Shown in pieces: positions 7,025 through 14,075 of a stretch of 18,619 bases of DNA. Position 1 is the first letter of the stretch. Each line of letters opens with the position of its first letter. A program made the position numbers and the translations under genes. The notes below the pieces were generated by a model. The model did no database searches and was not told the origin of the DNA. It saw only the letters and a list, made by a program, of their open reading frames with translations. This DNA is from Candidatus Woesearchaeota archaeon (GTDB lineage: Archaea; Nanobdellota; Nanobdellia; SCGC-AAA011-G17; JACPIM01), in NCBI GenBank assembly GCA_964584825.1, contig CAZPBI010000003.1, positions 13,382 through 32,000 on the forward strand, written 5' to 3'.

Positions 7025-7253
7025 TATATTCATCATCAACTTTTTCAACTTTTGTTATTAGTATTCCTGACTTTTTCATAAATGGATTATAACCTATTTC
7101 TCTTCGTGTTAAAAACAAATCATCATCTTTTGCATTAAGTATTTTCTGTTTCAATTTCTTATTCTTAAAATACACTATGGGATTTTTCTTAATTATCTCT
7201 TTTAAGTCTTCTGCAAATTCAGTTTCATATACAGCTGTTGGTTTTGGTTTCAT
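7008..7253 (-). CDS. hypothetical 81-aa protein
   Basis: Track ORF. ATGA-type overlap with 7250..7876. Confidence 0.65.
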   Translation of the reverse strand: MKPKPTAVYETEFAEDLKEIIKKNPIVYFKNKKLKQKILNAKDDDLFLTRREIGYNPFMKKSGILITKVEKVDDEYIKKNF

Positions 7254-7876
7254 TTTCTTTTCTCCATTTCTCCCATTATTCTTATCATTCCTTTTTTCAT
7301 TTCTTCATACCATTTCTCTCTATTTTTTCTTAATTTCTCAACATACTTTTTATACTTAAACAATTTTAACTTAATTCCCCTTTTAAACTCCTTTCTAAAT
7401 TTTGAAGTTATTTTATATTCTCTGTTTATTACTTCTAATGGTTCACTTTCTCCTGTTGCATAATTTGTTAAAATTTGTGGGTTTTTTGGATGTATTGAAT
7501 GCAATATAGAATAGCAAACACTTGCTTTTGCAAAATGTTCTTGATATAAATTACTTTCTCTTCTCACAATTTCACACATCAATAAATTCTTAACCAATTC
7601 CCTCCTAATTGATTCTTCGTCTGGTTTAACCCATTTTGATGTATCTACTGGTTTATCCCAATCTATTTCTTTCTCTTTAACCACTTTTTGTTTTTTAGAT
7701 TTATGCCCAAATACTTTACTAAATGAGAAGCCATAATAAATTTCTGCGATTGCTCCATATTTCTTATCTCTATACATTTCAATGGATATTATATCATTAC
7801 CAGAACTGCCTTTTAAAAATTCTGGCTTTATGTTTCTTTCTCCTTCTATCGCTATTCCAATAATATCTCTTTTCAT
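7250..7876 (-). CDS. hypothetical protein, 208 aa
   Basis: Long track ORF. No motif recognised. Confidence 0.75.
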   Translation of the reverse strand: MKRDIIGIAIEGERNIKPEFLKGSSGNDIISIEMYRDKKYGAIAEIYYGFSFSKVFGHKSKKQKVVKEKEIDWDKPVDTSKWVKPDEESIRRELVKNLLMCEIVRRESNLYQEHFAKASVCYSILHSIHPKNPQILTNYATGESEPLEVINREYKITSKFRKEFKRGIKLKLFKYKKYVEKLRKNREKWYEEMKKGMIRIMGEMEKRK

Positions 7877-8016
7877 TGTTTCACCTTCAAAAAATCACTT
7901 AACTGAGGATTATCTCGCTTTTTGTAAGCATCAATAATTTTATCTTTCTCAGCTAATTGATATTTCAAATCATTTATTTCTGTTTGCATTTCTCTTAATC
8001 TATCTGATTTACTCAT
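7873..8016 (-). CDS. hypothetical coiled 47-aa protein
   Basis: Hand-translated: MSKSDRLREMQTEINDLKYQLAEKDKIIDAYKKRDNPQLSDFLKVKQ. SD AGGAAGGTAATAGAATG. ATGA overlap with the next gene. Confidence 0.5.
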   Translation of the reverse strand: MSKSDRLREMQTEINDLKYQLAEKDKIIDAYKKRDNPQLSDFLKVKQ

Positions 8017-8447
8017 TCTATTACCTTCCTAAAATATAATTGGTGGTAAGATAGGAATATTTCAGGATACACGAAGGAATCTAACCTACATTTCCACCTT
8101 ACCAGTGTGGCGAGCTAACCTTGCTCCAATGTACGACCCTTACCTCCTAACCCAATAATGGAATTCATCATTATTGTTCTACTCCTATCCTATTTCCACT
8201 TTTTCATCTTGAAGATATAGGGGTGCATTTCGGCAAAATCAGAATAGATTTCACTTCAAAAACACAACCCCATCTTCAAGATTATTTTTTAGAAAACATC
8301 AGATAACGGTAAGCATTCTGGCATACATTTTCACTCACCTGAACACGTCAGAAGTATAGATGTATGATAGCATTATTGACTCCCGTTCAAACTACATAAT
8401 GCCTCATCCATAATTGCTTCTTCCCGTCTGCTGTTTTCTTTCCTCCT
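8017..8447 (-). ncRNA. candidate structured non-coding RNA or cis-acting element (family unknown)
   Basis: Largest ORF-free stretch in the window. G+C is elevated by hand count. Several verified complementary segments are present, and two have G.U pairs only on the minus strand. Confidence 0.4.
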
Positions 8448-8846
8448 CTATAAATTTTCATACCACTTCTCTTTTACGGCTCTCTCAACTTTATCCATGT
8501 TGTGCTTCATGCCTGAAATTTCTTTATTGCATTTTTCTTTGTAGTCATTTGCTTCTCCATAATCTTTAACTACAAAAAACAATTTATCATTTTTCTCATT
8601 GCTTGAAACAATAAACATTTTTGTAGTATTTCTCAGTCTATGAATCACTGACAAAACAACATGCCTCCAATAATAATCCTGTTCGTACATGCTCATTAGG
8701 TTTAATCTTGTTCCATAAACAGATTGCATTATTTCTCTTTTTGTCAATCCATTTGTTGTCCCTATGTGGTTTTTGAACAAATTATAGATTTCTGAAGTCA
8801 TGGTTGTTGTTATAGTTTTTGTTTGCTGATGTCTTTTATTCTTCAT
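8448..8846 (-). CDS. hypothetical protein, 132 aa, possibly winged-helix DNA-binding
   Basis: Track ORF with SD AAAGGAGGTAACAAAAATG. The segment GLTKREIMQSVYG looks HTH-like, but this assignment is weak. Confidence 0.7.
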   Translation of the reverse strand: MKNKRHQQTKTITTTMTSEIYNLFKNHIGTTNGLTKREIMQSVYGTRLNLMSMYEQDYYWRHVVLSVIHRLRNTTKMFIVSSNEKNDKLFFVVKDYGEANDYKEKCNKEISGMKHNMDKVERAVKEKWYENL

Positions 8847-8851
8847 TTTTG

Positions 8852-9076
8852 TTACCTCCTTTTTCTATACAGCTTATAACTACCACAGTTACTACATTTG
8901 AACTGTAATCTTTTAGGAAACATCCTGTAAAATATATTATCACTAATTTCATCTGCATGAGCTCTTATATTTATCAAATCCCAATTATGATTGGTGAATT
9001 CATATCCATATGGTATTTTTAGAGTTTGTTGATTGTAACAATTTTCACAAACAACTTCTAATGTATATTCTGTCAT
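8852..9076 (-). CDS. zinc-ribbon protein, 74 aa
   Basis: Track ORF. CENC ... CSNC. Ends with AGG AGG TAA, which supplies the next gene's SD. Confidence 0.7.
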   Translation of the reverse strand: MTEYTLEVVCENCYNQQTLKIPYGYEFTNHNWDLINIRAHADEISDNIFYRMFPKRLQFKCSNCGSYKLYRKRR

Positions 9077-9713: not shown

Positions 9714-9717
9714 TTTT

Positions 9718-9838
9718 TCATCTCCTTAATAGTCTATTAATAATTTCATTATATGTTTCACTTTCTGTAATCGCTATACTCTTCAATTTTTTGGCAGTTT
9801 CTTTTTCAACTAATATTAATGTTTTATTTTTTTTTCAT
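9718..9838 (-). CDS. ribbon-helix-helix (CopG/Arc-like) regulator, 39 aa, out of frame with its ATG at an A9 tract
   Basis: Open frame KKNKTLILVEKETAKKLKSIAITESETYNEIINRLLRR* has the RHH strand-helix-helix pattern. The only ATG (9838-9836) is followed by A9 (9835-9827) and reads MKKK*. Loss of one A joins the two. Confidence 0.45.
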
Positions 9839-9880
9839 ATTTAAAACCTTATATAATCATTATATAAACCCCTTTAAATA
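9839..9880 (-). promoter_or_regulatory. putative archaeal-type promoter (AAAGGGG-TTTATATA) for a leaderless transcript
   Basis: TTTATATA occupies 9868-9861 on the minus strand. The A of the ATG at 9838 is 30 nt after the first T, so the TATA centre lies about 26-27 nt upstream. Confidence 0.45.
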
Positions 9881-9892
9881 CCTTATGGTTCC

Positions 9893-9918
9893 TTAATTCT
9901 TTATAATTAAAGAATTAA
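9893..9918. repeat. perfect 11-bp inverted repeat with a 4-nt spacer (ttaattcttta-taat-taaagaattaa)
   Basis: Read directly. It lies between the stop of 9920..10426 and the putative promoter. Confidence 0.85.
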
Positions 9919-9919
9919 T

Positions 9920-12809: not shown

Positions 12810-12822
12810 TTTTCATCACCTC

Positions 12823-12973
12823 TTAATTCCCTGCTATTTCAAGCGTTCCTAAGAATTTATTGCAATCATCACATATAATATTTAGTTTTCTATTTACTAT
12901 TTACTATTTTTTTGTTTGGTTTATTCAAAATCATAACCAATGCTTTATGTAAATTTCTTTTTTTGCATATCAT
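12823..12973 (-). pseudogene. micro-gene split by a 7-nt tandem duplication (intact form would be 47 aa, MIC...CDDC)
   Basis: A good start context (GGAAGTGATAAAAAATG) is followed by 27 codons and a TAG inside the repeat. Removing one 7-nt unit fuses the frame to ...NRKLNIICDDCNKFLGTLEIAGN*. Confidence 0.35.
12891..12911. repeat. 7-nt tandem repeat: tatttac x2 plus a degenerate third unit (tattttt)
   Basis: Read directly from the sequence. Confidence 0.85.
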
Positions 12974-13007
12974 TTTTTATCACTTCCTTTCTGAATTACA
13001 TGTTATT

Positions 13008-13332: not shown

Positions 13333-13503
13333 TTAATCACTTCTTATCTTTCCACAACATTCACAATATCCAAAAAGTTCATCGCCCTTTTCATCACAAT
13401 GTGCAACCCAATCATGTTTTCCTCTTTTATGATTTTTACTTTTTGAAAGATACCCTTTAGGCATTTTTCCAAGAGCAATTGCAACTTCTATTTCTTTTTC
13501 CAT
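13333..13503 (-). CDS. hypothetical 56-aa Cys/His-containing protein
   Basis: Hand-translated: MEKEIEVAIALGKMPKGYLSKSKNHKRGKHDWVAHCDEKGDELFGYCECCGKIRSD. SD TGGAAGTGATGAATAATG. Confidence 0.55.
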   Translation of the reverse strand: MEKEIEVAIALGKMPKGYLSKSKNHKRGKHDWVAHCDEKGDELFGYCECCGKIRSD

Positions 13504-14004: not shown

Positions 14005-14012
14005 ACCATACT

Positions 14013-14075
14013 CCTCCTATATATATAAACCCTAAACTAAACAGGTTATATATAAAGGTTATGGTTGAGGTTATT
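14013..14075 (-). promoter_or_regulatory. 63-nt promoter/leader repeat, copy A (AACC-TTTATATATA ... AGTTTAGGGTTT ... GGAGG)
   Basis: 53/63 positions are identical to 17105-17167 in an ungapped hand alignment. It begins right after the SNF2 stop and ends in the SD of the next gene. TTTATATA is at 14056-14049 (minus strand). Confidence 0.55.

Follow-up and report, generated by a model that had tools for sequence, protein, structure and literature searches.

Locus and composition

The window considered here is a stretch of 18,619 nucleotides of contig CAZPBI010000003.1 (positions 13,382 to 32,000 of the forward strand), an AT-rich array (29.4% G+C) of small genes which are all encoded on the minus strand. 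Within this array, 431 nt (positions 8017-8447, subsequently referred to as the island) separate the stop codon of a gene for a protein of 132 amino acids (aa; 8448..8846, -) from the start of a gene for a 47-aa protein (7873..8016, -), with the gene for a 208-aa protein (7250-7876, -) located downstream. The island probably represents a non-coding RNA locus in the genome of a novel AT-rich virus. The core of this locus would be a divergent virus-encoded tRNA-Thr(GGU) gene, with the 132-aa gene on one side and the 47-aa/208-aa gene pair on the other, all within the unidirectional array.

A sequence-only reading of the window had singled out the island as a candidate structured RNA, devoid of open reading frames (ORFs), rich in stems and in G+C, in an otherwise gap-free array. 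ORFs of at least 20 aa touching the island are indeed restricted to overlapping fragments of 20-51 aa, with stop codons crowding all six frames, and the estimates of about 38% G+C for 8041-8440 and about 44% for 8041-8160 agree with a recount of 38.25% and 44.2%, respectively. With 37.6% G+C, the entire island ranks among the top 10 of 1819 sliding 431-nt windows, and no other non-coding stretch is as rich in G+C. Contrary to the sequence-only reading, the array contains at least three further intergenic gaps (9714-9919, 206 nt; 12810-13007, 198 nt; 14005-14075, 71 nt); these other gaps are AT-rich with 20-30% G+C. A decayed coding gene, against which the RNA candidate had to be held, finds no footing, with stops in all frames and nothing credible upon tblastx comparison with all related loci, the one match being non-syntenic and 27 aa long (E = 0.004).

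The minimum free energy (MFE) of the 431 nt corresponds to z = -4.1 on either strand and lies below that of all 100 dinucleotide shuffles, a comparison that the sequence-only reading had itself proposed. The pairings which that reading had assembled by hand (a, 8206-8216/8272-8282, with its extension and an inner hairpin; b, 8153-8160/8169-8176; c, 8370-8376/8396-8402; d, 8044-8050/8098-8104; e, 8050-8058/8181-8189) are all complementary, the two positions that read A.C on the plus strand (in the inner hairpin of a and in e) are G.U on the minus strand, and the short minus-strand motifs are found as counted (GGTTAG three times, GGTAAGG twice and GTGGAAAT twice). The proposal of an RNA gene on the minus strand, co-directional with the genes and flagged by its G+C content, therewith stands; the accompanying view that it could not be placed in any RNA family does not extend to its core, which is a tRNA (RF00005).

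A divergent tRNA-Thr(GGU) gene

In a search of the whole window against Rfam 15 at gathering thresholds, as had been suggested from the sequence alone, tRNA (RF00005) was the single match. It comprises positions 8065-8135 of the minus strand in full length (1-71 of 71) with 37.5 bits at a gathering score of 29, and E = 4e-6 when 901 nt were searched. ARAGORN assigned the same 71 nt to tRNA-Thr(ggt) with default and with all relaxed thresholds tried. The tRNA can be read on the minus strand only, co-directional with all genes.

The anticodon loop CUGGUAA has 7 nt with U33 and a purine at position 37 (A37), the variable loop has 4 nt and the T-loop reads UUAGAUU. Nine of ten conserved tertiary nucleotides are kept (U8, A14, G18, G19, G53, U54, U55, A58 and C61), the tenth, C56, being replaced by A56, and according to the alignments the interactions U8-A14, A15-U48, G18-U55, G26-A44, U54-A58 and G53-C61 are retained. 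The cloverleaf, with -16.4 kcal/mol, is about iso-energetic with the unconstrained MFE structure (-16.5 kcal/mol). G35 and U36 are present, unlike the acceptor pairs used by the threonyl-tRNA synthetase (ThrRS) of Escherichia coli (see below). The 71-nt element is clearly tRNA-derived and probably L-shaped, and may participate in decoding.

The 44% G+C peak as well as most of the repeated motifs are found where they are because the tRNA lies there. The tRNA covers two of the three GGTTAG copies, one GGTAAGG and one GTGGAAAT: GGTTAG at 8120 lies within the D-loop and includes G18 and G19, GGTTAG at 8086 comprises the last two T-stem bases and the T-loop, the anticodon loop is formed by GGTAAGG at 8103, and GTGGAAAT at 8097 represents the 3' strand of the anticodon stem together with the variable loop. 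Further degenerate tRNAs, a tmRNA or an intron-containing tRNA were detected neither by ARAGORN with relaxed thresholds nor in Rfam searches with E up to 10. When 241 million metagenome records were scanned for CTGGTAA...GGTTAGATTCC, no other tRNA was recovered in which the two are so combined, and the DNA-pattern scans returned 12 chance matches only, none of them a tRNA.

Comparative evidence comes from the 208-aa protein, for which 18 homologues with 35-54% identity were found in sediment and other metagenomes. Among the ten distinct related gene contexts (13 loci) examined, solely L030, from a distant relative, harbours a tRNA-Thr, with anticodon UGU and 58.7 bits, 39 nt upstream of the homologue (40% identity); the homologue is followed by a weak tRNA-like element (38.1 bits, anticodon CAU, T-loop UUAAAAU with A56) and a tRNA-Asp. 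The homologue of L030 lies thus within a tRNA cluster (L030 coordinates 19-89, 128-814 and 1037-1178), in which the T-loop of the tRNA-Thr reads UCCAAUU (C55), and T-loops of non-canonical sequence may be characteristic of these viruses. As judged from gene order, the arrangement of a tRNA-Thr followed by a gene of the 208-aa family in two distant viruses speaks for a genuine viral tRNA locus rather than for a cloverleaf arisen by chance, with the recurrence in L030 being the sole comparative support available.

Table 1. Features of the island and its borders (positions in the window)
Feature	Position	Strand	Basis
Divergent tRNA-Thr, anticodon GGU, 71 nt, CCA not encoded	8065..8135	-	Rfam RF00005 and ARAGORN
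5' arm of the stem enclosing the tRNA: GUGG, 3-nt AAA bulge, UAGGAUAGGAGUA	8180..8199	-	Folding, repeats D4 and I1
3' trailer arm UAUUCCUAUCUUACCAC	8043..8059	-	Inverted repeats I1 and I4
Small AU-rich hairpin (b), 8 bp, 8-nt loop, in the tRNA leader	8153..8176	-	Perfect complementarity
77-nt hairpin, 31 bp	8206..8282	-	Folding compared with shuffles
149-nt segment closed by a 13-nt inverted repeat (12/13 complementary, I5)	8291..8439	-	Weak evidence of function
Leader of the 47-aa gene with Shine-Dalgarno sequence AGGAAGG at 8024-8030	8017..8042	-	Sequence

Structures flanking the tRNA

The tRNA and hairpin b are enclosed by a stem of 17 bp formed between the 3' trailer (8043-8059) and the 5' leader (8180-8199), in which GUGG, a 3-nt bulge and 13 bp succeed each other and two pairs are G.U. 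The 168-nt domain that includes this stem (8036-8203) folds with -48.7 kcal/mol and z = -3.35 on the minus strand, where 0 of 200 shuffles are as low, compared with z = -1.8 on the plus strand, and the leader-trailer duplex itself, with -21.4 kcal/mol, is equalled by 6 of 500 shuffled trailers. As the leader segment partly repeats the tRNA segment GGUGGAAAUGUAGG (direct repeat D4), the trailer can alternatively pair with the anticodon arm (8090-8104), which is equalled by 12 of 500 shuffles. Pairing d (anticodon loop with 3' trailer) and pairing e (5' leader with 3' trailer) had been noted to cross each other, as a pseudoknot or as mutually exclusive folds; the crossing holds as a choice of the trailer between anticodon arm and leader, in which each pairing exceeds chance only marginally (p ~0.01-0.03). 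Hairpin b is weak alone (8136-8205, -; -7.7 kcal/mol, z = -1.7).

A tRNA-like module on a long stem that is built from distant 5' and 3' segments is reminiscent of the bacterial Y RNA YrlA. Unlike YrlA, the element in the window is a full cloverleaf with an anticodon arm and its stem lies outside the acceptor; furthermore, neither Y RNA nor YrlA was among the Rfam matches with E up to 10, and no Ro/Rsr (TROVE) gene was found in the contig.

The most stable structure is the 77-nt hairpin upstream of the leader-trailer stem. Its stem begins with 11 bp at the base and, after a 3-nt bulge, continues with 5 bp; a 1-nt bulge and 7 bp come next, and an internal loop and 8 bp lead to a 6-nt loop. Since the upper half of the hairpin includes five G.U pairs, this half forms on the minus strand only. 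Folded as 8204-8284, the hairpin reaches -32.5 kcal/mol with z = -7.0 on the minus strand and -22.5 kcal/mol with z = -5.4 on the plus strand, a difference of 10 kcal/mol; its inner 44 nt are significant on the minus strand only (z = -3.0 versus -0.95). In an 80-nt scan of the window, none of the segments listed undercuts the hairpin in minus-strand z or in free energy, and no similar hairpin was seen at other gene boundaries. Each base arm is in itself an 11-bp palindrome, and the arms are hence also direct repeats (D3, I6).

Several known classes were considered for this hairpin and its surroundings. A minus-strand intrinsic terminator was rejected, as the hairpin is followed by GAAAAAG and no U-tract and a terminator scan of 7700-8900 came back empty. 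Upon inspection, the stems do not conform to the canonical archaeal bulge-helix-bulge motif with its two bulges, since each has a single 3-nt bulge adjoining a helix of 4-5 bp, and a C/D-box small RNA is not supported, as AUGAUGA at 8165-8171 has no D box at the right distance and the match to SNORD18 is weak (17 bits). Apart from the tRNA, the Rfam search of the island with E up to 10 retrieved no family, with chance-level scores of 11-17 bits as opposed to gathering scores of 41-128; the classes without a match include riboswitches, ribozymes, T-box, Y RNA, introns and omega/HEARO RNAs.

The farther upstream segment 8291-8439 has z = -2.1 on the minus and z = -4.5 on the plus strand as a whole, its interior z = -0.8 (not significant) and z = -2.3, respectively; it lacks an Rfam match with E up to 10. 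At the opposite end of the island, 8027-8037 can pair with 8057-8067 (I7), that is the 3' end of the tRNA and the start of the trailer, to form a leader hairpin that is not significant (-9.4 kcal/mol, z = -1.4).

The upstream 310 nt (8136-8447), chiefly the 77-nt hairpin, might constitute an independent virus-encoded small RNA beside the tRNA, which would be compatible with a tRNA gene as the core and is seen as an unlikely, though not a negligible, addition to it. The island retains 35.6% G+C even without the tRNA, the extreme z and the minus-strand preference of the hairpin fit such an RNA, and there is a precedent in phage T4, in which stable RNAs of 119 and 139 nt adjoin a tRNA. These species 1 and 2 RNAs (rnaC and rnaD) are likewise structured non-coding RNAs, of tRNA size or above, encoded on the same strand as the adjacent viral tRNA, in T4 a tRNA-Arg, but they lie 3' of the tRNA, whereas the structures in the window lie 5' of it. 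The position beside a tRNA is all that is common to both: there is no sequence similarity to rnaC or rnaD, with no match to the island longer than 11 nt, and rnaC ends in a canonical T-arm (GGGUUCGAAUCCC), of which nothing similar is present in 8136-8447. Moreover, the upstream segment has no Rfam match and no homologue in any collection, so that conservation and covariation are missing, no promoter or terminator bounds a separate transcript, and the segment 8291-8439 is weak on the minus strand.

Functional tRNA gene, relic or other element

A number of observations weigh against a functional viral tRNA gene. The stems of the 7/4/5/5 cloverleaf are not fully paired, with C1xC72, A31xG39 and U50xU64 as mismatches and two further acceptor pairs being G.U. 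Stem mismatches are known in some phage tRNAs, and they therefore lower the confidence in function without excluding membership. With A56 in place of C56, the G19-C56 elbow pair is lost. The score of 37.5 bits is low, the better tRNAs of the relative reaching 54-59 bits, and the acceptor end shows C1xC72 and G2.U71 instead of G1-C72 and C2-G71, which are identity elements for ThrRS in Escherichia coli. Among the Thr codons of the window genes (ACA 138, ACU 51, ACC 13, ACG 5), the GGU anticodon serves 31%, and no promoter was found for the tRNA, promoter-like matches being at chance level. In nine of the ten related contexts, neither a tRNA nor a large gap separates the homologue of the 208-aa protein from the genes preceding it, and none of the relatives of the 208-aa family or of the helicase encoded on the contig has a comparable gap. 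No relative with a homologous leader was encountered, and the flanks were found neither elsewhere in the contig nor in the related loci, IMG/VR, phage or plasmid collections. In another assembly of the virus (CAZHDJ010000001.1, 39,154 bp) the island is 100% identical and the window differs only by a 92-bp indel; being identical, the two assemblies are uninformative on conservation, and no close relative that would allow covariation to be followed was found in the collections searched. The indel, at 13339-13440, is situated inside a small Cys-rich gene (13333-13503), with the rest of the 18.6 kb being 100% identical.

The low score, the three stem mismatches and A56 would equally be expected of a decaying tRNA pseudogene, perhaps the last unit of a former cluster, with the remainder of the island as non-functional spacer and the stems as leftovers of duplication and inversion. 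Such a relic would account for the resemblance of 8180-8202 to a partial duplicate of the anticodon-stem/variable-loop segment of the tRNA (D4), the weak support from codon usage, the interior of 8291-8439 that is not significantly structured on the minus strand and an AGGAGG at 8442-8447 with no ORF behind it. However, hardly any tertiary position has changed and the optimal fold has remained the cloverleaf, while A56, which recurs in the tRNA-like element of the second virus, may be a lineage trait rather than a sign of decay. Furthermore, 431 nt of junk are seldom kept in viral genomes packed so tightly, a hairpin with z = -7 and one-strand G.U pairs is hard to reach by decay, and no second tRNA remnant was detected with E up to 10. 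A relic is hence judged doubtful, somewhat more so than the additional small RNA.

An element acting at the DNA level, an origin or att-type site as already offered by the sequence-only reading, or a pair of palindromic operators (ATCTTSAAGAT twice, 66 bp apart), is very improbable, although the base arms of the hairpin are palindromes and direct repeats at once and the region lies among replication genes. Integrating elements classically target tRNA genes. For attP on a tRNA gene, neither an adjacent integrase nor identity with a host tRNA could be established: no integrase is encoded in the ~35 kb read, the 25-nt 3' end of the tRNA is not present in 185,579 representative genomes (GTDB set), and the whole cloverleaf and not the 3' part alone is present. 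Iterons, tandem repeats, repeated initiator sites and an AT-rich unwinding region as in a replication origin are lacking, as the direct repeats are short and two-copy and the region is GC-rich whereas origins are AT-rich; the gap 9714-9919 is the better origin candidate. The operator motif is not enriched in the window (3 found versus 2.3 expected), and the G.U-dependent extension of the hairpin points to a single strand and not to duplex DNA.

Scarcely any weight is given to an antisense RNA on the plus strand, starting near 8042 and ending at the hairpin 8206-8282, behind which a T-run on the plus strand only (UUAUUUUUU) resembles an intrinsic terminator: a weak promoter-like site (8008-8035, +) and the better plus-strand z of 8291-8439 would agree with it, but the terminator scan reports no site there, the promoter match of 9/12 is of chance frequency with the sigma-70 scan at chance level window-wide, on the minus strand the stability of hairpin and leader-trailer stem is clearly higher, the tRNA reads on this strand only and all genes are minus.

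The trailer sequence CUUACCA (8044-8050) is a perfect complement of the anticodon-loop nucleotides 33-39, contains the Thr codon ACC and sits in the 19-nt loop of the weak hairpin that overlaps the Shine-Dalgarno sequence of the 47-aa gene. It could be speculated that the tRNA-like element is not, or not only, made for decoding and that its anticodon loop UGGUAAG pairs with CUUACCA as a cis-sensing module, through which processing or state of the tRNA would control translation of the 47-aa/208-aa gene pair, with the 77-nt hairpin as a new stable viral RNA. T-box leaders share with this arrangement the Thr codon in a 7-nt perfect complement of the anticodon loop in the leader of the downstream gene; they differ in that the island has no T-box match in Rfam (E up to 10), no T-box sequence or antiterminator and a leader hairpin with z = -1.4. 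If true, a T-box-like principle in a virus, with a new architecture, would be at hand. As the leader hairpin is not significant and the feature is missing in the leader of L030, this is rated the least probable of the proposals.

Expression, processing and comparison with known systems

For a tRNA-Thr(GGU) gene as the core, a sequence of events can be proposed. Transcription would take the locus along with the downstream genes or directly in front of them; RNase P would cleave the 5' end of the tRNA and RNase Z would cleave after the discriminator base, whereupon CCA could be added by a host enzyme or by a viral CCA-adding enzyme like that of related contigs, three of which (L008-L010) encode such an enzyme ~3 kb downstream of the homologue of the 208-aa protein. 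The mature tRNA would then decode ACC and ACU, and its excision would also split the upstream from the downstream mRNAs. Leader-trailer stem and 77-nt hairpin may be precursor structures involved in processing or 3'-end protection, or a co-processed stable RNA.

The core belongs to an ordinary kind of element, the virus-encoded tRNA, of which it is here a divergent new member. As in the tRNA cluster of T4, a coding-strand cloverleaf is embedded among small unidirectional genes in a virus with a polymerase similar to T4 gp43, and without an encoded CCA, this end must be added post-transcriptionally. Like the T4 tRNAs, which RNase P and a 3' nuclease release from a longer precursor, it would be cut out of a larger transcript. 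In contrast to phage tRNA genes, the one in the window is single, scores low, has three stem mismatches, A56 and no G1-C72, and is enclosed by a 17-bp leader-trailer stem. A long imperfect hairpin and a tRNA at a gene boundary of a unidirectional array are also reminiscent of the RNase III sites of the T7 early mRNA and of mitochondrial tRNA punctuation. By analogy, cleavage at the island would separate mRNAs and leave a protective 3' hairpin, although, unlike such processing hairpins, no similar one is present at other gene boundaries of the window. To our knowledge, most archaea lack RNase III.

What had been supposed to be an unknown structured RNA is thus mostly a viral tRNA gene, recognised by standard tools within seconds. 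What is left as new are the non-canonical features of the tRNA, together with the very stable, strand-specific 77-nt hairpin and the leader-trailer stem, which are without a family. A56, seen also in a related virus, together with the C1xC72 end and the lack of the ThrRS acceptor identity pairs hint at a viral tRNA lineage with a non-canonical elbow, which bears on tRNA processing and charging and possibly on the evasion of tRNA-targeting defences. No long-standing question is opened by these findings alone.

The virus and its gene context

The contig encodes a family B DNA polymerase that is 27% identical to T4-like gp43, besides Hjc, a PD-(D/E)XK nuclease, TnpB, a SNF2 helicase, a DUF932 protein and a TFIIB-type zinc ribbon; ~35 kb read contained no integrase or recombinase Pfam match and no recognisable structural gene. 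The virus has next to no relatives. For the upstream 132-aa protein, an orphan, no homologue turned up among 5.8 billion proteins, IMG/VR contains no relative of either flanking protein, and blastn of the island against phage and plasmid collections yielded nothing.

The 208-aa family, of which 19 members were found, is uncharacterised and displays the invariant motifs KPVDTSKWVKPDEESIR and YSILHSHSPKNPQ; the window protein has no match in Pfam, no sequence match in the PDB, and its AlphaFold model (predicted local distance difference test, pLDDT, 79) is without a Foldseek match in the PDB. A small ORF (47-97 aa) precedes the gene of this family in every contig read extending upstream, except L029.

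The host could be archaeal (DPANN), as is hinted at by a relative of the 208-aa protein (L031, CAYIGE010000031.1) in a metagenome-assembled genome labelled Candidatus Woesearchaeota, by Hjc, by the TFIIB-type zinc ribbon and by GGTGA-type Shine-Dalgarno sequences, which are common. Counter to an archaeal host, the helicase has its relatives in tailed phages that encode a DNA polymerase III alpha subunit.

The TnpB gene (OrfB_IS605/Cas12f-like; L003:4751-5902) is located outside the window, between DNA polymerase and PD-(D/E)XK nuclease, and TnpB also adjoins the 208-aa homologue in L008-L010. A miniature inverted-repeat transposable element or a TnpB-associated element was rejected for the island, as the contig has no further copy of it and the TnpB flanks do not resemble it.

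The sequence GGGTTTATATA occurs twice (9861-9871 and 14022-14032, -), in both cases in an intergenic gap shortly upstream of a gene start, and is a candidate promoter element, the TTTATATA part of which resembles an archaeal TATA box; two matches were reached in 15 of 200 shuffles. The 20%-G+C gap 9714-9919 further harbours a hairpin (9893-9918) that immediately follows a stop codon, consists of A and U only and pairs as a perfect 11-bp palindrome around a 4-nt loop; it has the strongest plus-strand z in the 80-nt scan and is a possible terminator or boundary element. The coding strand is extreme in composition (43% A, 21% G, 28% T and 8.5% C), with 22% G+C at third codon positions, and the minus-strand genes terminate with TGA in 25, TAA in 14 and TAG in 8 cases.

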